DNA from: an uncultured Candidatus Saccharibacteria bacterium
Lineage (GTDB): Bacteria > Patescibacteriota > Saccharimonadia > Saccharimonadales > Saccharimonadaceae
Reading direction: 5' to 3'
Assembly: GCA_964475445.1 (NCBI GenBank)
Contig: CAYYWU010000003.1
Span: 7,269-71,268 of the forward strand
Length of the DNA: 64,000 nucleotides
Shown: positions 27,647-51,409 of the stretch, piece by piece
How the letters are laid out: each line of letters begins with the position of its first letter
Numbering within the stretch: the stretch's first letter is position 1
The notes under the pieces: model-generated
The model's input: the letters and a program-made list of their open reading frames with translations, nothing else
Databases searched by the model: none
What the model was told of the DNA's origin: nothing
Made by a program: the position numbers and the translations under genes

Positions 27647-29128
27647 ATGGATAATAAATCCCTGGGTAAGTCGCGGCGACTTACTCCTAATAACCGGTCA
27701 ATTACTGGAGCTGGAATGCTATACGATATTGGCGATCGACCAAAACCTGTAAAACGAACTCTTCTGGCAATTCAGCATGATTTTGCGATGTTCGGGGCAA
27801 CAGTGCTTATGGTAATCTTGGTCAACACCGCACTTGGCGTGGAGGTTTTCCCGATTCCTGTAGCAATTTGCATGGCAGGAGTCGGAACCTTGATTTACCA
27901 GTTCTTCACACGAGGACGGTCACCAGTTTTCCTGGGAAGCAGTTTTGCCTTCATCTCGCCAACTATCTTAGGATATGGTATTGGCGGAACTCCGGGAGTT
28001 ATGACGGCATTGGCGCTGGTTGGCGTCACCTATATTATTGTCGGGCTAATCGTCAAGCTGATTGGCAAGGGCTGGATTGATCGTTTCTTGCCGCCGGTGG
28101 TTATCGGACCGGTCATCATGGTTATCGGCTTAGGGTTATCGACATCGGCCATCTCTCAGATGGGACTAACAGTAGACAGCGGAGCGAGTGTTTTGGAGAT
28201 TTTATCAGGCTTCATAACTTTAGCGGTTGCGATTATAGTCATGGTATTGCTCCGAAAAACTTTCCTTGGTATCATCCCGTTCTTAACTGCCATTGTTATT
28301 GGGTATTGCTTTTGCATTATCACCGGGCAAGTAGACTTTACTCCAGTCAAAGAGGCGGCGTGGGTTAGCATGCCGAATTTCCAATTTATGGGAGTGAACT
28401 ATATGCCGACACTATTAGCATTCTGGCAGATTGTTCCGGTAGCATTGGTTACAATGGCGGAGCATATCGGAGACCACGAGGCGCTTAGTACGATTACCGG
28501 ACGAAACCTATTGAAGGATCCGGGACTTTCGAGGACGCTAATTGGCGATGGATTTGCAACCTTAGCCGCAGCATTGGTCGGAGGCCCGCCGAATACAACT
28601 TACGGTGAGAACACCGCTGTTGTTGGTATGACCCGAGTAGCTTCAGTCTGCGTGTTACGTCTGGCGGCAATCTTTGCAATTTTCCTGGCCTTCCTGGGCA
28701 AGTTTACGGCATTAGTATCAACAATCCCATCTCCAGTGCTTGGCGGAGTATCAGTTTTGCTCTATGGCTTCATCGCCTTGAACGGAGCGAAAATCTGGGT
28801 CGAAAACCAGGTAGACTTCAACGTACCGCGAAATGTGGCGATTACGGCTCCAGCATTAGTTTTCGGCCTAGGCGGAGCGGTACTTGGGAACGGTATAGTA
28901 TCGATTTCGGGAATGAGTATGACGGCGATAATGGCAATTTTGCTGAACTTGCTGCCTAAAGATCCAGAAGAAATCCAGCGCCAAAAAGAGCGCGAAGAAG
29001 ATGCGCGTATTTTGGAATATATCAAAGGCGAGCATGTTTTAGAGGCAATTCAGGCTGATGTAGAGTTGCAAAGAGCAGTTGACCGGGCAGTTGTGATGTA
29101 TTCTGCGACAGTTAGCACCGAAGATTAG
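27647..29128 (+). CDS. NCS2-family uracil/nucleobase permease (UraA/PyrP-like)
   Basis: LGSSFAF, EHIGD and [11 protein letters not shown] motifs. Confidence 0.92.
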
Positions 29129-29159
29129 CTGGCAACCTTTCACAAATTTGGGTGGGCAT

Positions 29160-29187
29160 AACCGTTGTATTTTTTACAACGGTTTTT
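29160..29187 (+). terminator. Intrinsic terminator after the permease
   Basis: AACCGTTGTA / TACAACGGTT 10-bp stem followed by Ts. Confidence 0.8.
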
Positions 29188-29234
29188 GCTTTTTGGGCTT
29201 GACGCCTGGCAAGATTTGGCTTATTATAAACATA

Positions 29235-29380
29235 AGCTGGTACGCTTCACAGGGGTTCCACTGATGTTTAGTGGAGTGTGGAGACTTTAACAAAAACAAA
29301 AACAGCGGATTAAAACAAACCTATGTGCCCCAGGGTGGGCGCGCATCAGCGCAAAAACCGGTTCGAAAGAGCCGGTTTTC
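29235..29380 (+). ncRNA. Candidate stand-alone structured small RNA
   Basis: Promoter TTGACG-17-TATTAT (29199-29227); closing stem 29236-29245 / 29341-29350; GAAA-capped terminator 29354-29379. Confidence 0.5.
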
Positions 29381-29431
29381 TTGGGATTAAGACATTTTCT
29401 TGCAATTTTGCCAATTTTAGCATAAAAACTA

Positions 29432-29460
29432 TTGACAAAAATGATAATCTGTGATACGAT
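29432..29460 (+). promoter_or_regulatory. Sigma70 promoter
   Basis: TTGACA-17 bp-TACGAT; shares TTGACAAAAATGATAA with the copy at 19757-19787. Confidence 0.55.
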
Positions 29461-29549
29461 GGAGGTATAGGCTAGGGCGTGGGAGCTTAAGAAAATTAAG
29501 AAGCTATCCCATAGCCCTCAAAAATCTCAAAAAATGGAGGGGAAAGAAA

Positions 29550-30242
29550 ATGAGTAAAAAAGAAAAGATTTTTTGGTTAGTAGTTGCAGTATTAGTGCTT
29601 ACGCTGGGGATTGCGTTTATGGTAGCGCATTCTAATAGCAAACAAACCACAAGGGCGGTCTTAGAAGCTGAAGCTACGGACAAGCTGGAATATTCAACAG
29701 AGAACCCGACCTATTCTATGGAGAATCCCAAGGAAACCATTGAGTGTAAGTCGGAGATTCTCGACATCATGGACATGAAACCCGTCAACCGGCCGGTAGT
29801 TCATAACATAGACGGTCATTATAATCCCAAGACCGGCAAGCTCTGCAAGGATTCAGAGTACGTCGTTTGGGTGGACTTCCCGGACATGCTTCTGGCGGAG
29901 CTGGAAAATGGCCGCCAGAACTTTGAAGTTGACGCTCGGTATACGTTCAAAGTCGAAGCCGGAGATTGGTTCCGCGCGGAAGTAAAGATTTACTCCCCGG
30001 ACACGGGCAGGCTTTATCGCGCCGAGTGTTCGCTGGAGGCTGCTGACGGTTTGTGCAACAAGCACTGTTTCGAGGCGGACCCGAGGATTGCGCTCAGTCG
30101 AGATTGGGAGTTTGAAGACGGACATTTCGCCTTCAGCTTCTACACTTCGGCCCTGCCGGATGACGGTCCGAAGGCGACTAGCGATGGTATCTCTTCCGAT
30201 TACGCAACGGTTAATGCTTATATCGATGGCGCACAGGGTTGA
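29550..30242 (+). CDS. Membrane-anchored hypothetical protein
   Basis: GGAGG SD; MSKKEK followed by a TM helix; the longer ORF start 29451 is unlikely. Confidence 0.7.
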   Translation: MSKKEKIFWLVVAVLVLTLGIAFMVAHSNSKQTTRAVLEAEATDKLEYSTENPTYSMENPKETIECKSEILDIMDMKPVNRPVVHNIDGHYNPKTGKLCKDSEYVVWVDFPDMLLAELENGRQNFEVDARYTFKVEAGDWFRAEVKIYSPDTGRLYRAECSLEAADGLCNKHCFEADPRIALSRDWEFEDGHFAFSFYTSALPDDGPKATSDGISSDYATVNAYIDGAQG

Positions 30243-30300
30243 GCCCATAGCTATGGGAGGCGATATGCTGGTACTTCATTGTACCAGCATATTTTTGTGG

Positions 30301-30544
30301 TTAAAAGGTGTTTTGTAGGCAGCGGAGGGGGAGACCAGCCCAGCGATGATGGCTGAGCGACGGGTTGACACCAGCAGCATCGAAGTAGAGGAAGGACGCG
30401 CGGGCATCAGTGTCAGAGGTATAATAGCCCGCCGAAGCCGACCACCCGTAGCCGCTCAGGCCGGCGCTGTTCAAGCGGCCGTAGTAGATACTGACAATCC
30501 CGCTGCGCACAAAGTATAATGGAGCTTTAGCTATATTGTAGCCT
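30301..30544 (-). pseudogene. Silent variable cassette A (FISUMP/CLec-like C-terminal fragment)
   Basis: GYNIAKAPLYFVRSG...RWAGLPLRCL; long 5' arm, short 3' arm. Confidence 0.8.
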
Positions 30545-30565
30545 AGCGGTGATATAATAATAAGC

Positions 30566-32716
30566 ATGGACTTGTCGGCACCAATTGAGGAAGTGAAGGG
30601 GGTGGGGCCAAAAACTGCAGCTGCCCTGAAACGTGTCAATCTGTGTACGGTTGGCGACTTGTTATACTGCTTGCCACGGATTTACGAAAATTATCAGACC
30701 ACAGTGAAAATTGAGGATTTGCGGCCCGGGAAAGTCGTGATTCGCGGTAAAATTAGCGATTTGCACGTGATTCGCACCAGCCGCAAGCGCCTGACGATCA
30801 CTCAGGGCGTGATTCGTGACGATACTGGCGCTATTCGCACGCTATGGTTTAATCAGCCTTATCGCGCCAAGCAGTTCGACGAAGACCGGGAGTATTATTT
30901 TACTGGTAAATATGAGCTGAAGAGCGGACGCTATCAGCTGTCTTCGCCTTCGGCCACTCTTGTGCAGGACGCTGCAACCGACACTAATGCGAGTTTTCAG
31001 CCGATTTATGCCGCAAAAAGCGCTATCAAGCCGCAAACCTTTCATAAGCTCATGGAGAGTTTACGACCAGACTTTGCTAAGATCCCGGATTTATTGCCTT
31101 TTACAGGCGGAAGACCAGAGTTTGTCAATCCGGGCGCGCGTGCGGAGGCACTATATAACTCACATTTTCCCGAAGAACCTGAAGATGCCGAAAAAGGGCG
31201 CGAGTATTTGGCTTATGAAGAACTATTTGAGCTGATTCTTGCGGCCAAGTTGAACAAGCAAGAAAACCAGCGTTTGCAATCCATTCCGCTACATTTTAAT
31301 GCTCGCTTGACGCAGATGCTGGTCAAACATTTGCCGTTTCAGCTCACAGGGGCACAGCGCCGCGCAACCTGGGAGATTCTTCAAGATCTCGAGCGCGGCA
31401 CGCCAATGAATCGACTTTTACAGGGGGATGTTGGATCCGGGAAAACAATTGTGGCGGCACTCGCGGCCGCTCAAGCAACTGCTAATGGTTATCAAACCGC
31501 AATTTTAGCGCCGACCGCTATTCTCGCAACGCAACACTTTGAAAGCCTAGGGAAGCTTTTTGCTGGATTGCAAGGTGCAATTTTAGCCGATTTGCGAGCG
31601 AAAAAAGCTCAAAAGTCGGTAAAAAATGGTCAAGCTGACACCAAAAATTCTAATAGCGCAAGCAAAACCACTTTTCGCATGCCTCGAATCGCTTTGCTTA
31701 CCGGCGCAACCAAAGGGAAACGCCAGCTCAAGCAGCTAATCCAAAACGGCGAGATTGACTTAGTGATTGGCACGCACGCGCTAATTACTGATGACACACA
31801 TTTTAAGTCACTCGCCTTTTGTGTAATCGATGAACAGCATCGGTTTGGTGTGGGCCAGCGCCAAAAACTGTTACTAAAATCTCCGAAGAACACCGCTCCG
31901 CATCTACTTTCGATGACCGCTACGCCAATTCCGCGCTCTTTGCAACTGACGATGTTTGGTGATCTTGACGTTTCCATCGTCAATGAGCTGCCACCTGGCA
32001 GGCAGCCAATCGTGACCAAAATCTTGAATGAAGTCGAACAACGTGATGAGTTATATCCGAAAATGCGCGAGTTGCTAGCAAAAAATCAACAAATTTACTG
32101 GATTTGTCAAGTTATTGAAGAGAAAAATGCCAACACTGCCACGCCAGTAAAGCAACAGGCGAAGAAGCTACAAGAACTTTTCCCTAAAGTCAAAGTTGAT
32201 GTTCTGCATGGCAAAATGAAACCTGACGAAAAGGACGCAGTGATGCAACGTTTTGCTGATAATAAGATTCAAATTCTGGTTTCTACCACCGTTGTCGAAG
32301 TTGGTGTCAACGTGCCGAATGCTAATATGATCGTGATTCAGGACGCCGAAGGCTATGGCTTGGCGCAGCTACATCAGTTGCGCGGACGTGTTGGTCGTGG
32401 TGACCAGCCGGCGAGCTGTTTTCTACTCACGACGGGCGAGGGTAAACCATCAAAACGTCTGCGCGAGATGGAAAAGTCAACCGATGGCTTTCGCCTCGCC
32501 GAGGTTGACCTGAAGATTCGCGGTCCGGGTGAGATTTATGGTGCGCAGCAACATGGTGAGTTGAACCTCCAAGTTGCAAACTTGACTGACACGGAACTTA
32601 TTGCCCAGGCAAACCATCATGCTGGCGAATTTGCCAAGAATCCCGAAAAACTGGCCGACTACCCGGAATTATCCACCCGGATTAAAAAATATCAACAGTT
32701 AACGACGCTAAATTAG
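30566..32716 (+). CDS. recG: ATP-dependent DNA helicase RecG
   Basis: RLLQGDVGSGKT, IDEQHRFG, MTATPIPRSL and QLHQLRGRVGRG motifs. Confidence 0.97.
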   Translation: MDLSAPIEEVKGVGPKTAAALKRVNLCTVGDLLYCLPRIYENYQTTVKIEDLRPGKVVIRGKISDLHVIRTSRKRLTITQGVIRDDTGAIRTLWFNQPYRAKQFDEDREYYFTGKYELKSGRYQLSSPSATLVQDAATDTNASFQPIYAAKSAIKPQTFHKLMESLRPDFAKIPDLLPFTGGRPEFVNPGARAEALYNSHFPEEPEDAEKGREYLAYEELFELILAAKLNKQENQRLQSIPLHFNARLTQMLVKHLPFQLTGAQRRATWEILQDLERGTPMNRLLQGDVGSGKTIVAALAAAQATANGYQTAILAPTAILATQHFESLGKLFAGLQGAILADLRAKKAQKSVKNGQADTKNSNSASKTTFRMPRIALLTGATKGKRQLKQLIQNGEIDLVIGTHALITDDTHFKSLAFCVIDEQHRFGVGQRQKLLLKSPKNTAPHLLSMTATPIPRSLQLTMFGDLDVSIVNELPPGRQPIVTKILNEVEQRDELYPKMRELLAKNQQIYWICQVIEEKNANTATPVKQQAKKLQELFPKVKVDVLHGKMKPDEKDAVMQRFADNKIQILVSTTVVEVGVNVPNANMIVIQDAEGYGLAQLHQLRGRVGRGDQPASCFLLTTGEGKPSKRLREMEKSTDGFRLAEVDLKIRGPGEIYGAQQHGELNLQVANLTDTELIAQANHHAGEFAKNPEKLADYPELSTRIKKYQQLTTLN

Positions 32717-32737
32717 TGCTATAATAATAAAGTATTT

Positions 32738-33586
32738 ATGTATGCTACCACTACGATGGTGAAAAATCCCAAGTTTTCCGGTAAACATATGGGAACTCAC
32801 CAACAACTTGACCAGGCTGCGCGCAAAATCCTGACGCGCCATCTTAAGGGGCGTTATTTTCCGACCAGCAAGGAGATTCTTTATTTCGAAGGTATGCGTG
32901 GCCCGGATGGTCTCAAGCGCAAGAGTCCCGATCACGATGATCCTTCCCATATGCTCGACGATGCTGAGCACCAGCTTTTTGGGCAGATTATGGATCATCA
33001 TTATAATCTTGTGCAGGCACTCAAGCAACGCAATGATGTGCGGGCGGCTTTTGAAGCCGCCTGGATGGCGCACAAGCTGACGGATGGTTTGACGCCAGCG
33101 CACCATTTTCCGCTATCGGAAGCTAAAGAGGAACTGATGTCTAATAAAGAGTTTATCAAGATCTTTGGCGAACCGGTCAAGGGAATTATGCATGGGCGTA
33201 ATGCCCTGGAAACTGCACGCAATAACTGGCTTTATTGGGGGGCTGGTGGGTATATGTCGAAGCATGTTGCTTACGAATACGGCGTGGCAATTATTGCTGC
33301 CGCCCTCCCCGAACGCTCTTTAACACCGCGTGTTGGCCGTTCGGAGTTCCAGTATGTTGACCCCAAGAAAGTTTTTTACGAAGCGCTGGCTAAAATCCAG
33401 GATGCAAAAATGTATGACCGCTTTCGCAAGGATGGCTGGACGACGGATTTGGCGCTAGATACGAAGAATTTACTCTTGCCAGAAATTGTGCGCACAATTG
33501 CGCTAGTGTGGTATTCGGCGGTCGAAGAAGCCTCAAGTCAAAAAGCTAAAACTCCGCGCCAGAAAGCGCAGGATAGCCATGCCTAA
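32738..33586 (+). CDS. Conserved hypothetical protein, possibly Zn-dependent phospholipase C/P1-nuclease-like
   Basis: THQQLD and WMAHKLTDGLTPAHH His/Asp pattern; family tentative. Confidence 0.45.
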   Translation: MYATTTMVKNPKFSGKHMGTHQQLDQAARKILTRHLKGRYFPTSKEILYFEGMRGPDGLKRKSPDHDDPSHMLDDAEHQLFGQIMDHHYNLVQALKQRNDVRAAFEAAWMAHKLTDGLTPAHHFPLSEAKEELMSNKEFIKIFGEPVKGIMHGRNALETARNNWLYWGAGGYMSKHVAYEYGVAIIAAALPERSLTPRVGRSEFQYVDPKKVFYEALAKIQDAKMYDRFRKDGWTTDLALDTKNLLLPEIVRTIALVWYSAVEEASSQKAKTPRQKAQDSHA

Positions 33587-34142
33587 AGCGAGAAACATGC
33601 AAATTATCGCTGGAAAATATAAAGGTTGCAAGTTGCTGTCTCCTGAGAACACGGCAACGCATCCTATGGGTTCACGAGAAAAGCTAGCCCTGATGAACAT
33701 GCTACAGCCCTATCTTAAAAATGCGACCGTGCTCGATGCATATGCTGGGACGGGGGCCTTAGGTCTTGAGGCGCTGAGTCGTGGGGCTAGGGAGGCAGTG
33801 TTCGTTGAGTCTAATAGCAAAGTTGCTCGAACTTTAAATGATAATCTTGATAATGTGTTGGGAAGTGAGTTTACTCTTGCGACGATTTGTATTTACCCAG
33901 TACAAGAATTTACACAAATATCAACTTATCATAACTATTTTAATATTATCATTGCTGATCCGCCCTATAATCGTTTCGAGTCTACGGAAATTGTCAAGTT
34001 GGCGGAATGCTTAGATGCTAACGGTATTTTAGCGCTGTCCTACCCGGCAAAATTGGACGTTCCGATGTTAGACGGGCTAGAGTTGATCACTAACCGGCAA
34101 TATGCAGCTGCAGGAATTGCAATTTATCGTAAAACTCGCTAA
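33579..34142 (+). CDS. rsmD: 16S rRNA m2G966 methyltransferase
   Basis: IIAGKYKG, LDAYAGTGALGLEALSRGA and ADPPY motifs. Confidence 0.88.
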   Translation: MPKARNMQIIAGKYKGCKLLSPENTATHPMGSREKLALMNMLQPYLKNATVLDAYAGTGALGLEALSRGAREAVFVESNSKVARTLNDNLDNVLGSEFTLATICIYPVQEFTQISTYHNYFNIIIADPPYNRFESTEIVKLAECLDANGILALSYPAKLDVPMLDGLELITNRQYAAAGIAIYRKTR

Positions 34143-34186
34143 CTTCGCCTAGCCGATACCGGAAAAATGTGCTAAAATAAAAATAT

Positions 34187-34271
34187 GCCCGTGTGGTGAA
34201 ATTGGTATACACGTATGCCTTAGGAGCATATGCCGCAAGGTGTGCTGGTTCAAGTCCAGTCGCGGGCACCA
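34187..34271 (+). tRNA. tRNA-Leu(TAG)
   Basis: Cloverleaf with long variable arm; TATGC-CT-TAG-GA-GCATA anticodon arm; GGTTCAAGT T-loop; 3' CCA. Confidence 0.96.
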
Positions 34272-34337
34272 TTGACAACTCAACATAACATGATATAAAA
34301 TATGGAAGGTTAAGTTTCGCTGCATAACAGCGGATTT

Positions 34338-34549
34338 TTTGTGCGCAGCGGGTATGTAGGGTTAGATATGGGCAGAATGCGTATGGCGGGGTTCCGTGGC
34401 GTATGGCGGTCAATGACTTCTAGCACAAGTGGACGTGCCCATAATCTTAATATTGAAAATACTGATGTTGATCCATCATACGACACGTCTTATAGCTTGC
34501 ACCATGGTCTCTCCCTCCGCTGCCTGGCAGACTAGTTATATATAGTGAG
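34338..34549 (+). pseudogene. Silent variable cassette B (divergent interior)
   Basis: FVRSG...LSLRCLAD*; short 5' arm, long 3' arm GACTAGTTATATATAGTGAG. Confidence 0.78.
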
Positions 34550-34556
34550 AAAAGCC

Positions 34557-34677
34557 AAAGTAAGCCTAAACCTAACCTGCAGGGACGCGTCGCTCACTCC
34601 CGTCTTCACGGGGTTCGCGCGCTGCATGCTCGCTAGCAAGCTCCGCACCCCCTGCAGGTTAGGTTTAGGCTTACTTT
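34557..34677 (+). repeat. 121-bp long-stem hairpin element 1
   Basis: Perfect 28-bp inverted repeat (34557-34584 / 34650-34677) enclosing a 65-nt GC-rich loop. Confidence 0.9.
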
Positions 34678-34685
34678 AGTTCTTC

Positions 34686-34930
34686 TTATTCATAAAGTTC
34701 AAGGCAGCGGAGGGGGTAACCGCCCCAGCGAGCGGCGTTGTTGTTCGACGGGTTGACATCAGCATTGAAGCTGAGGTTGGACGCGCGGGCATCAGTAACA
34801 GAGGTATAATAGCTCGCTGTGAGTGACCACCAGGAGCCGTTCAGGCCAGAGTACCTCAAGCGTCCGTTATTGATATGGACGTACCCGCTGCGCACAAAGT
34901 ATAATGGAGCTTTAGCTATATTGTTAGCCT
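34686..34930 (-). pseudogene. Silent variable cassette C
   Basis: NIAKAPLYFVRSG...PSNNNAARWGGYPLRCL; long 5' arm, short 3' arm. Confidence 0.8.
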
Positions 34931-34935
34931 TTTAT

Positions 34936-34978
34936 GTCAAGCACAAGAGAAAAGAAAACATAAACACTTGTGCTTGAC
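34936..34978. repeat. 12-bp inverted repeat with a 19-nt spacer
   Basis: GTCAAGCACAAG (34936-34947) / CTTGTGCTTGAC (34967-34978). Confidence 0.8.
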
Positions 34979-35003
34979 TATAATAATGCTAATAAGGTTG
35001 TAG

Positions 35004-35124
35004 GAATAATAAGAAGAGCCCTTGCTAGACAATCCGCAGCGCCACGAGCGAGGGATAGGCGCGGCTCACCCGCGACGGCGGGCTGAGACGACGCCGTGTC
35101 TAGCAAGGACGCTTCTTATTATTC
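35004..35124 (-). repeat. 121-bp long-stem hairpin element 2
   Basis: 27-bp inverted repeat with 2 mismatches (35004-35030 / 35098-35124); 67-nt loop homologous to the element 1 loop when read on the minus strand. Confidence 0.88.
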
Positions 35125-35131
35125 TTGCATC

Positions 35132-35355
35132 CTCACTATATATAACTAGTCTGCCAGGCAGCGGAGGGGGAAAGCGTACCAACGATCGCCCGGGCCGCTC
35201 GACGGGTAGACGTCATCAGCATTGAAGGCGAGGTAGTACGCAGTAGCAGTAGTAGCATTAGTATAAACTGCGGCGGTAGACGGCCAGCCGTAGCCGTAGA
35301 TGTCTGCGTACCTCAAGCGGCCGTAGTAGATATCGATATTCCCGCTGCGCACAAA
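35132..35355 (-). pseudogene. Silent variable cassette D
   Basis: FVRSG...RWYAFPLRCLAD*; short 5' arm, long 3' arm. Confidence 0.8.
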
Positions 35356-35396
35356 CCCTAAAAACCTATGTTATAATAAAAGTATCAAGGAGGTTT

Positions 35397-36362
35397 ATGA
35401 CAATTACGCGCGAAGAGTTCACGCTAAAGAGCGCCCACGATGGGCTGAGGTTAGGAGTTAGTCTCCGTTTCCCGGAAAATCCCCGAGGGATTTTGCAACT
35501 CGTACATGGTATGGCCGAACATCGAGAGCGCTATCATGATTTCATGGATTTTTGTGCTCAACATGGGCTGGTCGTAATCATTCACGATCATCGCGGGCAC
35601 GGCGCCAGTGTTAAATCTCCGGAAGATTACGGCTATTTTTATCAAGATGGCGCAACTGGAATTATCGCCGATGTACACCAAATGACGCAGTACGTACGCG
35701 AACGTTTTCCGGGTTTGCCGCTTACGCTCTTTGGTCATAGCATGGGATCACTCACTGTGCGTGCTTACATGCGTCAGTATGATGCGGACGTTAATGGACT
35801 TATTGTCTGTGGCTCACCAAGTAAACGGGTGGGAGCGCGCACCGGGCTGGCAATTGTCAAACTACTCAAATTGCTTCGTGGCGAGCGTCATCGTAGCGAG
35901 CTAGTCAACTCCCTCGCTTTCGGTGGCTATAATCAGAAATCCGCCAAGCTTGCGCGCCAGAATGGCAACACTGAGGCGGCCAGCACCTATACTCGTGAAA
36001 ATTCGTGGGTGGTCAGCGATCCGGCGGTTGTCGAAGCCTATGACGCCGATCCGCGTGATGGTTTTCGGTTTACTTTGAATGGTTTTGAAGTGCTGTTTAC
36101 GCTAGTAACGCAAGCTTATAACAAAACTGGCTGGAAGATGGCTAATCCTAATGTGCCAATCTTCTTTATTTCCGGTGCTGATGACCCGTGTTTGATTAGT
36201 CATAAAGATTTCTATAAAGCAGTTAACTTCATGCGTCAACGTGGCTATCGCAATGTCTCTAGCAAACTTTATCCGAAAATGCGCCACGAGATTCTCAACG
36301 AGATCGGCAAGGCTGAAGTTTGGCATGATATTATCAAGTGGATTAACCAGGAAGTAGGCTAA
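35397..36362 (+). CDS. Alpha/beta hydrolase (lysophospholipase-like)
   Basis: HGMAEH, DHRGHG, GHSMG nucleophile elbow and RHEILNE motifs. Confidence 0.92.
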   Translation: MTITREEFTLKSAHDGLRLGVSLRFPENPRGILQLVHGMAEHRERYHDFMDFCAQHGLVVIIHDHRGHGASVKSPEDYGYFYQDGATGIIADVHQMTQYVRERFPGLPLTLFGHSMGSLTVRAYMRQYDADVNGLIVCGSPSKRVGARTGLAIVKLLKLLRGERHRSELVNSLAFGGYNQKSAKLARQNGNTEAASTYTRENSWVVSDPAVVEAYDADPRDGFRFTLNGFEVLFTLVTQAYNKTGWKMANPNVPIFFISGADDPCLISHKDFYKAVNFMRQRGYRNVSSKLYPKMRHEILNEIGKAEVWHDIIKWINQEVG

Positions 36363-38903
36363 ATGGCGTTTTATTATAATCAGACCGTCAAGGATACGCT
36401 CGCGGACCTTAAAGTTGACCCAGATCAGGGTTTAAGCTCTCGAGAGGTCGCCAAACGCCAGGAAGCCTATGGCAGGAACCTACTCAAAGTCAAAGAAACC
36501 CCTCTTTGGAAAAAGTTACTTGAGCCGTTTGCTGATATCTTTATGCTCATCTTGGTGGCAGCGCTGATTTTGTCGGCTGTGCAACAAGATTGGATTGAGG
36601 TGGTAGCAATTGCAGTGATTATTCTGGCTGATGCGATTATCTATTATATTCAGCGCTTTTCAACCGACAAGATTTTGCAGTCGCTCAAAGAAAGTACTCG
36701 TCAGACGATTGCAGTTGTGCGCGACGGTAATGAGAGGGCAATAGAATCTGATGAGCTAGTCCCCGGAGATATTGTGATTTTGCGCGAAGGCGATCGTATC
36801 CCGGCCGATGGGCGGATCATTAGCGAAACTGGTCTTTTGTCTGACGAAGCCATGCTGACTGGCGAGTCCGAAGCTATTGCTAAAGATGCTAAGGCGATTT
36901 CTGGAGTAAAAAAGGTCTACGAGCAACGTAACATGGTGTTTTCAGGAGCTTTTGTTCTAACGGGCAGTGGTAAGTTTGTTGTTGCTGCGACTGGCAACCA
37001 AACTGAGTATGGTCGCATTGCTTCCTTGGCTTCGTCAGTTGAAGAAAGCAGCCCGATTTCCGAAAAAATCAACAAATTAGTCATCAAGATTGCAATTGCG
37101 GTTCTGGTCTTGGCTGTAGTAGTATTGATTGTGCAGTTGATTGATGGAATCGATATTTTGAATGCGCTTAAGTTTACTCTTGCCATGATTGTCTCTGCTG
37201 TGCCCGAAGGTTTACCGATTGCGATTTCGATTGTGCTAGCATTATGTGCAAAGCGTATGGCGCGCAAACAGGCATTGATTAAAGAATTGAAAGCTATTGA
37301 GTCGATCGGCATCGTGACAACAATCGCCAGCGACAAAACTGGTACTTTGACCGAGAACCGCTTAGAGCTTCGAGAATTATGGGGTCTAGAACCGAGAACG
37401 GAACTCCTGAAGTTACTTGCGCATAGCGCTCTGCTAGAATCGGCTTCAATTGATGAGGAAGATAATGCTAATCTAACGGCTGTTGATCCACTTGATGCTT
37501 GTATCTGGGAATATCTAGATAGTCAAAAAACTGTTCCAGCACAGGCTGAACCGCTACGTTTCTATGCTTTTGACCAAAAAATTAAAATGTCTGGTAACCT
37601 TTATCGTGGAAAGCAGGGTGAACTACTACTATCTCTGAAAGGTGCGCCAGAAACAATTATTGCCCGTTCCAACTTGTCGGAGAAAGAACGCACGCTAGTC
37701 GAGGCAAAGCTCAATGAACTGGCCAGTCACGGCTATAAAGTCGTTGCGCTCGCTTCGGCTGAGATCAAGCGCGAAATTAACGAACTTGGGCGCCTGGAGA
37801 AATCCGATAAGCTGAAGTTCGCCGGATTTATTGCCATTGCCGATGCAATTCGCCCGGAAGCGGTGCGCGCCATTAAGCAGACTGCCCGGATGGGGGTGAA
37901 GACGAAGATGGTAACTGGTGACCATGCTGGCACGGCTTACGCCATTGGCCGCGAACTTGGCCTCGCCAAAGATTTTTCGGAAGTTCTAGATTGTTCAAAG
38001 CTTGGCAATATTAACGACAATGACCTTGAAGAGCTAGTTAAGACTACGACTGTCTTCGCGCGGGTAACGCCAGAAGATAAGTTTCGCATTTTGCAAGCTA
38101 TCAAGAAGACCGAAATCTGCGCCATGACTGGTGATGGCGTCAACGATGTTCCAGCGCTGGTTGGCGCTCACGTGGGCATTGCTATGGGTGACTCGCCGAG
38201 CATTGTTCAGGATGCTGGCGACATTGTACTACTCAATAATAATTTCAAAAACATCACCGAAGCGATCAAAGAAAGCCGCACGGTTTTGGCTAATATCCGT
38301 CGTATGCTGGGATATCTGCTCGCTACCAATGCTGGTGAAGCGTTGACGATGATTGGCGCGCTCCTCTTTTTTGGCGATCAAATGCTGACGCCAATTCAAA
38401 TTCTCTGGGTGAACTTGGTAACTGATTCGCTGCTTGTAATTCCGCTCGGACTCGAACCGCCAGAGCCGCAAATTTTACGCGAAAAACCTGAGCATAAGGA
38501 CGCGGCGATTTTGCCCGCCAAGATGATTGTGCGCATGATAATCCTGGCGGCTCTAATGGCTGGCGTGACATTAGTCACTTACTTCGTCGCCAAAGTCACC
38601 TTAGAGTCGGCGGCGCAAGCCAATACTTTAGCTTTCACAGCGCTAGTGGTTATGCAGTGGAGCGGTGCGCTGGCAGCGCGGGGAACTTATGAAAATGTCT
38701 GGCGGCGCCTCAAAGTGCGACATCATGGATTTTTCTGGGCACTGATCGTGGCGATATTACTGCAAGTTTCGGCTTTGTTTGGCCCGCTGGCGCCGGTGAT
38801 TGATACGGTGGCCGTTCCTGCTGGGGCACTAGCATTAACCGCCATCGTGGCGTTTGTTTTGCCGCTAGCGGTCATGGAAATTTATAAGAAGCTAACCGCT
38901 TAA
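36363..38903 (+). CDS. Cation-transporting P-type ATPase (Ca2+-type)
   Basis: LTGES, VPEGLP, DKTGTLT, KGAPE and TGDGVND motifs. Confidence 0.95.
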   Translation: MAFYYNQTVKDTLADLKVDPDQGLSSREVAKRQEAYGRNLLKVKETPLWKKLLEPFADIFMLILVAALILSAVQQDWIEVVAIAVIILADAIIYYIQRFSTDKILQSLKESTRQTIAVVRDGNERAIESDELVPGDIVILREGDRIPADGRIISETGLLSDEAMLTGESEAIAKDAKAISGVKKVYEQRNMVFSGAFVLTGSGKFVVAATGNQTEYGRIASLASSVEESSPISEKINKLVIKIAIAVLVLAVVVLIVQLIDGIDILNALKFTLAMIVSAVPEGLPIAISIVLALCAKRMARKQALIKELKAIESIGIVTTIASDKTGTLTENRLELRELWGLEPRTELLKLLAHSALLESASIDEEDNANLTAVDPLDACIWEYLDSQKTVPAQAEPLRFYAFDQKIKMSGNLYRGKQGELLLSLKGAPETIIARSNLSEKERTLVEAKLNELASHGYKVVALASAEIKREINELGRLEKSDKLKFAGFIAIADAIRPEAVRAIKQTARMGVKTKMVTGDHAGTAYAIGRELGLAKDFSEVLDCSKLGNINDNDLEELVKTTTVFARVTPEDKFRILQAIKKTEICAMTGDGVNDVPALVGAHVGIAMGDSPSIVQDAGDIVLLNNNFKNITEAIKESRTVLANIRRMLGYLLATNAGEALTMIGALLFFGDQMLTPIQILWVNLVTDSLLVIPLGLEPPEPQILREKPEHKDAAILPAKMIVRMIILAALMAGVTLVTYFVAKVTLESAAQANTLAFTALVVMQWSGALAARGTYENVWRRLKVRHHGFFWALIVAILLQVSALFGPLAPVIDTVAVPAGALALTAIVAFVLPLAVMEIYKKLTA

Positions 38904-38934
38904 GGTTGTTGTAATTAATACAACACTTTTTATG

Positions 38935-38987
38935 TTGACACGCTATATATAGTGTCTTAAAATAGACATAGACACTAAATGTAGGGT
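38935..38987 (+). promoter_or_regulatory. nrdD promoter with tandem NrdR boxes
   Basis: TTGACA(38935)-17-TAAAAT(38958); boxes ACGCTATATATAGTGT (38940-38955) and ACACTAAATGTAGGGT (38972-38987), 32 bp apart. Confidence 0.8.
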
Positions 38988-39048
38988 CTAAGAACTCAAA
39001 GAACACAAAAATTAACTTAAGAACATAGTAAGAGGAGGTATATTTTTT

Positions 39049-41412
39049 ATGTTCAAAAAAATTGTCAAACGGGATGGGAAAATTGTCGACTTTAATCCTG
39101 ATAAAATTACCGAGGCTATTGCTAAAGCTGGTCTCGTTACGGAAGAATTCAAATATGATCGTGCAAAACAACTTTCCGAGAAAGCTGTGAAGCGCGCTCA
39201 AGAAACCATCAAGCAACGTACTCCGAGTGTTGAGCAAATCCAAGACATTGTTGAGCAGATTTTAATGGAATCGGCTTTCAAGCGCACAGCTAAGGAATAT
39301 ATTACTTATCGCCAAGAGCGCAACCGTATTCGCGAAGCCAAGAGCAATCTCATGAGCATTTACAAGACGATTGCTATTGCTGATGCCAGTGAGGATTCCG
39401 ACGTCAAGAGAAGCAACGCTAACGTCGATGGCAACAGTGCCATGGGGAAAATGCTCCAGTTCGGTGCCGAGGGTTCCAAGATTTTCGCTAAGACCATCTT
39501 GATGAAGCCCGAATTTGCCAAGGCGCACGACAATGGCGATATCCATATTCATGACCTTGACTTTTATGCCACCGGTACTTTGACTTGCTGCCAGACCGAT
39601 CCGTTGCAATTGTTTGCTGATGGCGGATTTAATACTGGACATGGCCATTTACGGACGCCAAACAGCATCGGCAGTTACGGTGCCTTAGCGGCAATTATCT
39701 TGCAAGCTAACCAAAACGAGCAGCACGGCGGTCAGAGCATTCCAAACTTTGATTATGCCATGGCTCCAGGTGTCAACAAGAGCTTTCGTAAGGCTTTGAA
39801 CCGGGCGATTCGCCAATATAATCGCTTCAGTGGCAACAAAGAAATCGAAGTCAAGATTCCAGAAGATCTTGAGTACGGTGACGAAAAAGCTTTGAAGAAG
39901 CTGAAATTGCCCGACGGTATCGTGGAAAGCGCCAACGAAGACGTTGAGCGCCAGACTTTCCAAGCCATGGAAGGCTTCATTCACAATTTAAACACTATGC
40001 ATAGCCGTGCCGGCGCACAGGTGCCATTCACCAGTATTAACTTTGGCACCGATACGAGCGAGGCTGGTCGCCTAGTCAGTCGCTGTTTGCTTGACGCAAC
40101 CGAAGATGGACTTGGCCATGGCGAGACGCCAATCTTCCCGATTTCGATTTTCAAAGTCAAGGAAGGCATAAACTACAACCCTGAAGACAAGAACTACGAC
40201 TTGTTTAAGCGTAGCATGGAGGTTTCCGCAAAGCGCCTCTTCCCGAACTTCGTCTTCATCGATGCGCCGTTCAACCTGAAAGGCTACAAGCCAGGTGACT
40301 ACCGCACCGAAATCGCTACCATGGGCTGTCGCACTCGCGTTTATAGCAGCGTTTTCCCCGAAAGTGATGGCATCACAACCGGTCGCGGCAACTGTAGCTT
40401 CACGACGATTAACTTGGTACGTCTCGGCATTAAGCACGGTATTGCTCTTGGTGAGCGCAAAGAGGCTGATTGGTCCGGTTTCTACAAAGAGCTCGATCAG
40501 AAGATGGACTTGGTGGCTGATGAGTTGCTTGAACGCTACGAGTTCCAAGCCAATCAGCATGTGCGCAACTTCCCGTTCTTGATGGGCGAAGGTAACTGGT
40601 TCGGTAGCGAAAAACTGGGCTGGAACGACACACTGCGCGACGTCATTAAACACGGTACGCTCAGTATTGGCTTCATCGGTCTAGCAGAATGTCTGGTGGC
40701 AATGACTGGCAAGCACCACGGTGAAGATGAAACTTCACGCGAGCTGGGTCTCGACATCATCACTCACATGCGTGAGCGTTGTGACGAGTATGCCAAGAAA
40801 TATAAGTTGAACTTTAGCTTGCTGGCTACTCCAGCCGAAGGTTTGGCAGGTCGCTTCACCAAGATTGATCGCAAGGAATACGGCAAGATTAAGGGTGTAA
40901 CCGATCGCGACTATTACACCAATAGCTTCCATGTACCAGTTTATTATCCGATTGGCGCTTTTGAGAAAATTGAAATTGAAGCTCCATATCACGAACTCTG
41001 TAACGCGGGTCATATCACCTACATTGAGCTCGATGGTGACCCAAGCGACAACATCGAAGCTTTTGAAGCTGTGATTCGCAAGATGAAAGAGAGTGGTATT
41101 GGCTATGGATCAGTCAACCACCCAGTCGACCGTGATCCAGTTTGTGGCTATTCTGGCATCATCGAAGGCGATCGTTGCCCAAGCTGTGGTCGCAAAGAAA
41201 GTGAAGGCGATGTGCCGTTTGAGAGATTGAGGAGAATTACCGGCTATCTCGTAGGATCACTTGAGCGCTGGAACGACGGCAAGAAAGCCGAGGAGCATGA
41301 CCGCGTTAAGCACGAAGTGAAGTGTAATGTCAACGGCGTCTATAGTAAAGAAGAAAAAGCCGAACGCGAGGCCGCGAAAGCTAAGCAAAAGAGCTTGAAA
41401 GGTAAGAAATAG
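39049..41412 (+). CDS. nrdD: Class III (anaerobic) ribonucleoside-triphosphate reductase with an ATP cone
   Basis: IVKRDG ATP cone, LTCC, MGCRT, CPVCG-like Zn site and RRITGYL glycyl-radical loop. Confidence 0.97.
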   Translation: MFKKIVKRDGKIVDFNPDKITEAIAKAGLVTEEFKYDRAKQLSEKAVKRAQETIKQRTPSVEQIQDIVEQILMESAFKRTAKEYITYRQERNRIREAKSNLMSIYKTIAIADASEDSDVKRSNANVDGNSAMGKMLQFGAEGSKIFAKTILMKPEFAKAHDNGDIHIHDLDFYATGTLTCCQTDPLQLFADGGFNTGHGHLRTPNSIGSYGALAAIILQANQNEQHGGQSIPNFDYAMAPGVNKSFRKALNRAIRQYNRFSGNKEIEVKIPEDLEYGDEKALKKLKLPDGIVESANEDVERQTFQAMEGFIHNLNTMHSRAGAQVPFTSINFGTDTSEAGRLVSRCLLDATEDGLGHGETPIFPISIFKVKEGINYNPEDKNYDLFKRSMEVSAKRLFPNFVFIDAPFNLKGYKPGDYRTEIATMGCRTRVYSSVFPESDGITTGRGNCSFTTINLVRLGIKHGIALGERKEADWSGFYKELDQKMDLVADELLERYEFQANQHVRNFPFLMGEGNWFGSEKLGWNDTLRDVIKHGTLSIGFIGLAECLVAMTGKHHGEDETSRELGLDIITHMRERCDEYAKKYKLNFSLLATPAEGLAGRFTKIDRKEYGKIKGVTDRDYYTNSFHVPVYYPIGAFEKIEIEAPYHELCNAGHITYIELDGDPSDNIEAFEAVIRKMKESGIGYGSVNHPVDRDPVCGYSGIIEGDRCPSCGRKESEGDVPFERLRRITGYLVGSLERWNDGKKAEEHDRVKHEVKCNVNGVYSKEEKAEREAAKAKQKSLKGKK

Positions 41413-50936: not shown

Positions 50937-51170
50937 TCCATTATACTTTGTGCGCAGCGGAGTCGTCGGTATTAACAGCGGCCGCTTGTGGGACGCAGGC
51001 CTCACCGGCTACGGCTGGCCGTCTACAGCCGCTGTTTATACTAATGCTACTACAGCTATTGCGTACTACCTCGTCTTCAATACTACGGATGTCAACCCGT
51101 CGAGCGGCCCGAACCATCGTTGGAACGGTTTCCCCCTCCGCTGCCTGGCAGACTAGTTATATATAGTGAG
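50937..51170 (+). pseudogene. Silent variable cassette E
   Basis: PLYFVRSG...RWNGFPLRCLAD*; medium 5' arm, long 3' arm. Confidence 0.8.
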
Positions 51171-51409
51171 AAGCCTGTAGGCAGCGGAGGGGGAAACCGT
51201 TCCAGCGTCTATATGGACTAAAGGATGGGCTGACGTCAGTGTTTGTAAAGTCCAGAAAGTGCATAGTAGCTTCGGCAGAACTAGTATATGAAGCTGCTGA
51301 TGATGACATATAAAGACCATTGACTCCAGTATAGCTAAGTTCACCTTCTTTAATAATAACTCGCCCGCTGCGCACAAAGTAAACGAAAGCTTTAGCTATA
51401 TTGTAGCCT
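51157..51409 (-). pseudogene. Silent variable cassette F (divergent interior), tail-to-tail with E
   Basis: GYNIAKAFVYFVRSG...RWNGFPLRCL; long 5' arm, short 3' arm. Confidence 0.78.

Follow-up and report, generated by a model that had tools for sequence, protein, structure and literature searches.

Rickettsia palindromic elements are reportedly palindromic repeats of about 100–150 bp in a reduced genome, where they lie between genes and also in frame within conserved genes. Their distribution among close relatives is said to be patchy, and their copies are said to share the whole sequence, including the arms. To our knowledge, no transposase has been found for them. REP/REPIN sequences and IS200/IS605-derived elements are extragenic, are moved by Y1 HUH transposases (RAYT, TnpA) and conserve a stem and a GTAG or CGTC tag. 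The inverted terminal repeats of parvoviruses and AAV are the ends of linear viral genomes and are processed by the Rep nuclease. In DGR systems, a hairpin/cruciform whose stem sequence is free marks the target, 4–34 bp after the variable repeat; it has a GC-rich stem of 7–10 bp and a 4-nt GRNA loop, and lengthening of the loop by 2 nt abolishes its function (Guo et al. 2011, PMC3240598).

The window analysed here, a stretch of 64,000 nucleotides from an uncultured Candidatus Saccharibacteria bacterium, contains two hairpin elements of equal length, e1 and e2, next to repeated cassettes (Table 1). The arms of e1 pair perfectly along all 28 positions and enclose a loop of 65 nt. Those of e2 (35004–35031 and 35097–35124) are paired at 26 of 28 positions, also around a loop of 65 nt. 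The two sets of arms have no common sequence and a GC-content of 46% (e1) and 39% (e2), compared with about 70% in the loops. Both elements fold on either strand with z-scores of −8.4 to −12.1, and none of 200 shuffled sequences was as stable. The original prediction, made from the sequence alone, of two 121-nt elements with unrelated arms was therefore confirmed by sequence and by folding against shuffles. Its further claim of homologous, covarying loops was also borne out. The loops align with each other and with six further paralogues, and among these eight sequences 12 of 25 pairs show compensatory change on both sides, the replacement of CCCGT/ACGGG by CCCGC/GCGGG being one of many. The inner hairpins of the e1 core are CCCGT-CTTC-ACGGG, which is lengthened by a covarying helix, and GCT-AGCA-AGC.

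Table 1. Coordinates of the hairpin elements and neighbouring cassettes in the window.
Feature	Position	Strand	Description
e1	34557..34677	+ (core in model sense)	121-nt hairpin element; model match at 34577-34658, E=1e-24
e1 left arm (AAAGTAAGCCTAAACCTAACCTGCAGGG)	34557..34584		private to the source genome
e1 core	34585..34649	+	Y-shaped GC-rich loop with two inner hairpins
e1 right arm	34650..34677		exact reverse complement of the left arm
e2	35004..35124	- (core in model sense)	121-nt hairpin element; model match at 35024-35103, minus strand
e2 core	35032..35096	-	homologous to the e1 core; both orientations (flip/flop) among paralogous loci
Cassette B with conserved 3' tail ...TGGCAGACTAGTTATATATAGTGAG	34338..34549	+	context, outside the element
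Cassette C with its own 3' tail (34678-34701)	34678..34898	-	3' end faces e1 from the other side
Cassette D with conserved tail	35132..35355	-	3' end faces e2
Cassettes in the window	30317-30513, 34338-34525, 34702-34898, 35156-35355, 50947-51146, 51179-51378		

A covariance model and a scan of the genome and relatives, which had been proposed as a check, revealed a much larger family. With the eight paralogues as the seed, a search of the 850-kb genome (38 contigs) returned 20 copies representing 12 distinct members, three of them outside the seed. BLAST searches with e1 and e2 found the core alone, carrying quite different long stems, at other sites of the genome. They also showed that e1 exists in six near-identical genome copies, every one between convergent cassettes, and e2 in five copies in a similar cassette-spacer setting. 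Three members are intergenic. Ten of the 12 distinct members are located away from cassettes, six of which are inserted in frame within genes. Judging by eye from translated motifs, these six reside in uvrA, uvrB, pheT, der, a tatD-like gene and a cysteine-desulfurase-like gene, all as part of long open frames with no stop. The frame in which the core is read varies from host gene to host gene, which means that it is the nucleic acid and not a peptide that is conserved. Copies were found in 34 of 41 congeneric genomes (1–33 copies each), and the model matched none of 16 other genera of the order. In one relative, G021, 17 of 22 copies are situated in open frames. What is conserved is a GC-rich core, about 70–80 nt long, which folds on either strand into a Y with two small hairpins and is closed by a short, semi-conserved inner stem, TTTTCnCGGG.../...CCCGnGAAAA.

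Hence, e1 and e2 probably belong to a family of selfish DNA repeats that form hairpins and are confined to one genus of gut Saccharibacteria, and are not a dedicated signal of the cassettes. One of the options first put forward, a REP/MITE-like element with a preference for this site, comes close to the evidence. No published description of such repeats in Saccharibacteria was found in the literature. The ultra-small genomes of Saccharibacteria are considered to have shed superfluous DNA; in this genus, however, genes for repair, translation and a GTPase accommodate dozens of inserted hairpins. For annotation, the family accounts for odd GC-rich inserts of 30–50 residues in conserved proteins and for long hairpins in spacers.

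The pairing was evaluated over 53 copies. The share of paired cells was 94.3%, with 275 changed on both sides, and none of 500 shuffles matched this. Strong covariation, which extends over three inner helices and the closing stem, would also be expected of a structured RNA, that is, a non-coding or cis-acting motif with a freely varying closing helix, which might act in regulation, in stabilisation or as a substrate of RNase III. One inner hairpin carries an insert of variable length in two paralogues, as happens in many RNA families, and a −10-like TATAGT is present in the cassette tail just upstream. A structured RNA is, however, a most unlikely explanation. A permissive Rfam scan (E≤1) of positions 28000–40000 gave nothing at e1 or e2, with a tRNA-Leu as the sole significant match. 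The stems are perfectly Watson–Crick paired over 28–40 bp. Positions in the inner helices of the 53 copies swap among GC, CG, AU and UA, and the one-sided G-U state is almost absent. The near-absence of G-U would be expected when pairing is required of both strands or when one arm serves as the template of the other, and not for an RNA evolving through wobble pairs.

The orientation of the core also argues against a transcribed function. All six gene-borne copies of the source genome are antisense to their hosts; in G021, sense and antisense cores occur in genes at a ratio of 9:8, and a fixed orientation relative to host genes, which was considered, fails in the relatives. Local GC skew fits better. 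The orientation of the core was concordant with the skew in 63 cases and discordant in 12, which comprise 21:4 in G010, 14:2 in G021, 19:2 in 18 further genomes with one or two copies each and 9:4 in the source genome. Here, the direction of replication was taken from GC skew only, the assembly consisting of 38 contigs, and the G-rich strand was assumed to be the leading one, as in other bacteria. A single orientation can extend along whole contigs (e.g., 13 of 13 copies on contig C1 of G010). The skew itself is very strong on some contigs (e.g., C10, C7, C18 and C1), ranging from +0.35 to −0.30 over 20 kb, and gene strand alone is insufficient as its explanation.

Both orientations of the core can be found at one and the same place. 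The der linker carries it in opposite orientations in different species. Within the source genome, C16 and C22 carry the 65-nt core of e2 in exactly the opposite orientation to that in C3, C15 and C18, between arms that are unchanged and in a paralogous block that is otherwise collinear. This inversion is a flip/flop of the kind made by hairpin-templated copying. Parvovirus and AAV inverted terminal repeats offer a functional parallel only: they combine a long stem with two small hairpins in a T or Y and undergo flip/flop by hairpin-templated copying, whereas the elements described here are isolated chromosomal insertions, and no Rep-like gene was identified. Pairing on both strands, an orientation linked to skew and inversion in place show that the elements, judged by their sequence patterns, act as DNA and not as RNA.

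The cassettes are units of about 196 nt extending from TTTGTGCGCAGCGGG to CCCTCCGCTGCC; the 850-kb genome contains 110 of them, six in the window. The genome encodes one reverse transcriptase, followed by an adenine-rich copy of the cassette (C1:1228-1423), which is the template repeat of a DGR. Mismatches between cassettes and template are enriched at template adenines. All 110 cassettes, where they depart from the template, do so at other bases besides adenines, and not one constitutes the end of a long gene (upstream in-frame codons ≤92). These 110 orphan cassettes are the truly unusual DGR feature of the genome. Cassettes mostly alternate in orientation, with 3' arms facing each other and 5' arms adjoining from behind. 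The spacers between them are near-identical between loci, and the cassette interiors are strongly different. The relatives recovered via the reverse transcriptase are uncultured Candidatus Saccharibacteria, several of them from a mouse gut catalogue.

The original prediction had proposed a role of the hairpins in the cassette system (targeting, nicking or priming). In such a scheme, a cruciform 3' of the variable repeat would direct, stimulate or prime the integration of cDNA into cassettes. The reverse transcriptase, the template repeat and the adenine-biased mismatches speak for it, and so does the location: e1 starts 31 nt after the 3' arm of the cassette, which ends at 34525, and e2 is equally spaced, both within the published 4–34 bp. 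Like the DGR target hairpin, the elements follow a variable-repeat-like cassette on its 3' side at a distance of some tens of bases and combine a free stem sequence with a conserved structure. Cassette 3' ends face 11 of 20 copies in the source genome and 12 of 30 in G010, in the latter at a distance of 74–150 nt and with all arms different; the corresponding value in G021 is 1 of 22.

Nevertheless, a DGR signal is a very unlikely explanation of the hairpins. The known target hairpins are indeed much shorter, as had been pointed out: a GC-rich stem of 7–10 bp with a 4-nt loop in the published case against a 28-bp stem with 39–46% GC and a structured 65-nt loop here. A cassette signal also does not survive the refutation set out with the original prediction, which was an abundant genome-wide element with no association to cassette arms: only 11 elements border cassettes, most of the 110 cassettes have no hairpin, and most family members lie elsewhere, six of them within housekeeping genes. 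There is likewise no link to the reverse transcriptase, and copy number does not correlate with its presence across the 41 congeners. G010, the richest genome, with 33 copies (32 with the stricter multi-genome filters), has no reverse transcriptase, nor do G011 (16 copies) and G012 (11 copies), whereas G022, G048 and G049 possess a reverse transcriptase and zero copies. The model found no match around the template repeat. A homology between the core and the spacer between reverse transcriptase and template repeat, noticed by eye (ACGCGTC...AAGCTCC), was rejected, as the model gave no match there at E≤1. Cassettes adjoining e1 and e2 are not clearly nearer to the template repeat than other cassettes. 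Long hairpins beside cassettes should therefore not be taken as DGR target-recognition signals. In the DGR loci of three relatives (L081, L082 and L085), a family member is present about 2.25–2.3 kb upstream of the start of the reverse transcriptase gene, probably as an orthologous insertion in a neighbouring gene. The DGR locus of the source genome has no such copy.

The offset of both elements from the cassette tails is identical: the GTGAG of the cassette B tail ends at 34549 and e1 begins 7 nt beyond, and the complementary CTCAC starts at 35132, 7 nt from e2. As a sign of precise placement, it loses much of its weight. The tail TGGCAGACTAGTTATATATAGTGAG is present on about 70 cassettes, and directly beyond it every copy diverges into unrelated DNA. 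The conserved cassette unit stops at ...ATAGTGAG, after which about 70 such tails diverge at once; thus, the shared offset is mostly a consequence of where this unit stops. Moreover, five bases of the 7-nt gap at e1 (AAAAG) are an extension of the tail that is also found on element-free tails. The tails of cassettes B and D are linked by a 40-nt inverted repeat with 98% identity.

The excess of copies facing cassette 3' ends is real but lineage-specific, and co-amplification alone does not explain it in full, the pattern recurring with different arms in G010. Tolerance together with co-amplification is the simplest account, because cassette arrays are the main dispensable repeated DNA and large inverted repeats are already present wherever cassettes converge. 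It is also possible that hairpins truly prefer the centres of palindromes, or that cassettes prefer hairpins.

The setting of the two elements within the array could be read as a sign of a function acquired later. A hairpin of selfish origin might have been domesticated as a terminator or insulator, with e1 and e2 being kept to stop convergent cassette transcription or to stabilise 3' ends. e1 occupies exactly the gap between two convergent cassette frames, e2 follows immediately on a third frame, and promoter-like sequences precede the cassette 5' arms. AAAAGCC and, on both strands, T-rich sequence adjoin e1. At other convergent cassette pairs, the cassettes' own 3' arms form a GC-rich hairpin of 20–29 bp. 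However, a simple terminator scan misses e1 and calls only a small sub-hairpin in e2, and the gene-borne copies cannot be terminators. Domestication is compatible with a selfish repeat family, and we consider it unlikely.

Comparison with orthologous loci gives an idea of the mobility of the family. The uvrA site is filled in five genomes and empty in 35, with the context ...SIEDRGAKDSEVITFSQRYAC or similar in the latter, and the uvrA product of the source genome has 43 aa between SIEARG and DSLYTF. Compared with the 35 empty orthologues, the whole hairpin with both arms is therefore extra, and an origin of the arms by inverted copying of target DNA was rejected for this site. In the five filled genomes, the arms have greatly diverged, and in two of them the core has diverged as well. 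At the der linker, 17 of 36 genomes carry an insertion. For e1, the C22 block contains a cassette B identical to that of the window and lacks e1 with its arms, and the sequence on the right-hand side differs. The site coincides with a recombination boundary, so that this filled/empty pair is not a clean insertion or deletion. A target-site duplication could not be delimited for the pair. Near-identical whole copies of e1 (six) and e2 (five) all share one spacer scaffold, and no fresh transposition event was caught. We infer mobility from the patchy distribution and from the filled and empty sites; the empty sites could be precise deletions.

The arms behave differently from the core. The outer arms are 20–40 bp long and private to each insertion, and arm sequences do not recur elsewhere in the genome outside their own duplicates. 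Among 100 congeners, no match to the e1 arms was obtained; all matches cover element positions 25–101 only, with core identity of up to 93%. An origin of the arms by borrowing from elsewhere was rejected, as neither the genome nor the 100 congeners contain a source. Between the e1 core and the uvrB copy, 44 of 45 bases are identical, although the arms of the two are unrelated; hence, the core was inherited or moved independently of the arms. Many arms are two-tiered, with an inner stem of 10–15 bp that has a weak consensus, a short mismatch and an outer stem of 13–17 bp or more. In G010 and G051, the symmetry reaches on into copies of the cassette tail. The outer arm of e2 resembles a second type of cassette tail, and outer flanks in G010 mirror part of the cassette tail. 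This suggests that the palindrome may have grown outward stepwise, a scheme that leaves the private tier unaccounted for. At the der linker of G047 (L072), a long palindrome has the T-rich inner stem typical of the family, TTTTTTCG...CGAAAAAA, around a loop of only 13 nt in which the core is missing. Either the core was lost and its stem stayed behind, or this hairpin was coreless from the start.

With regard to the systems described above, the Rickettsia palindromic elements appear to be closest in behaviour and differ in anatomy. In-frame insertion in conserved genes is common to both, with six such paralogues here and empty orthologues for uvrA and der; e1 and e2 themselves are intergenic. 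Unlike in the Rickettsia elements, sharing between members is limited to the apex of the hairpin (e1 positions 25–101), with arms private to each site; the core can be inverted in place, and its orientation follows strand asymmetry. There is no sequence kinship, and the host belongs to another phylum. REP/REPIN and IS200/IS605-derived elements are similar as hairpin repeats thought to act as single-stranded DNA, with transposition biased to one replication strand. They differ in conserving stem and tag and in their transposase: Y1/HUH transposase (Pfam PF01797) is absent from the source genome and from 39 of 41 congeners, being present in only two, though 34 of the 41 carry the element, so that a Y1 enzyme was rejected as the partner. 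Compared with a MITE, only the inner stem of about 10 bp is semi-conserved, and no autonomous partner was identified. Integron attC sites, which close gene cassettes on the 3' side, resemble the elements in being imperfect palindromes whose folded single-stranded form is recognised, whereas attC keeps its outer boxes and varies in the centre, the opposite of the pattern found here, and members of the present family also occur inside genes.

The combination of a conserved apex, private stems, in-place inversion and strand-linked orientation points to a mode of propagation that no described repeat family is known to explain. For a selfish repeat family, spread would proceed via single-stranded hairpin DNA at the replication fork, either by template switching or with a trans-acting structure-specific enzyme. 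The arms would be built at or after insertion, one being copied from the other. Copies survive at places that tolerate extra DNA: surface loops and linkers of proteins (in frame and with predicted read-through), a few intergenic spacers and the non-essential spacers of the DGR-like cassette arrays. The position of e1 and e2 next to the tails might reflect the end of the cassette unit at that point and the duplication of the elements along with the array scaffold. Between convergent cassettes, the hairpin may also act as a two-way transcription stop.

A bolder version, which we find rather doubtful, regards the core of about 75 nt alone as the mobile unit. It would spread at the fork with no transposase, acquire each time a new, untemplated private stem that is copied to the second arm, and flip by hairpin-templated copying; in some lineages, cruciform-prone sites would attract or seed DGR-type cassettes. 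The latter would explain why cassette 3' ends face hairpins. If true, this would define a new class of self-structuring bacterial repeat that is mechanistically tied to retroelement cassette arrays.

A second family of long hairpins with a different core, GGCTGACGCGGGTCCGAAT...GAGAGCGTCACC, was encountered at C10:6293-6409 and C24:8524-8656, also between convergent cassettes. Its core is opposite in orientation between the C10 and C24 copies, and in another species the insertion sites in der and uvrA are taken up by related cores.

Several further features were noted in the array surrounding e1 and e2. The stretch GGCTAACAATATAGCTAAAGCTCCATTATAC (34898–34927, minus strand), which also precedes many cassettes genome-wide, is located just before the 5' arm and scores as a promoter (CTAACA-18-TATACT). 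The transcript predicted from it starts at or near a GTG within the 5' arm. The cassette frames of 64–69 codons might thus be candidate leaderless small genes. The array begins 67 nt past the tRNA-Leu gene (region 34187–34337), and the interval between them contains a near-consensus promoter, TTGACA-18-TAAAAT (34272–34301). The same interval holds a small terminator-like hairpin (34316–34334) that continues into the 5' arm of the cassette. Positions 34938–34990, which separate cassette C from e2, form a 19-bp hairpin, TGTCAAGCACAAG...CTTGTGCTTGACA, with an A-rich loop of 15 nt. The C16 and C22 blocks contain this hairpin too, and the motif CAAGCACAAG appears again near the reverse transcriptase locus.
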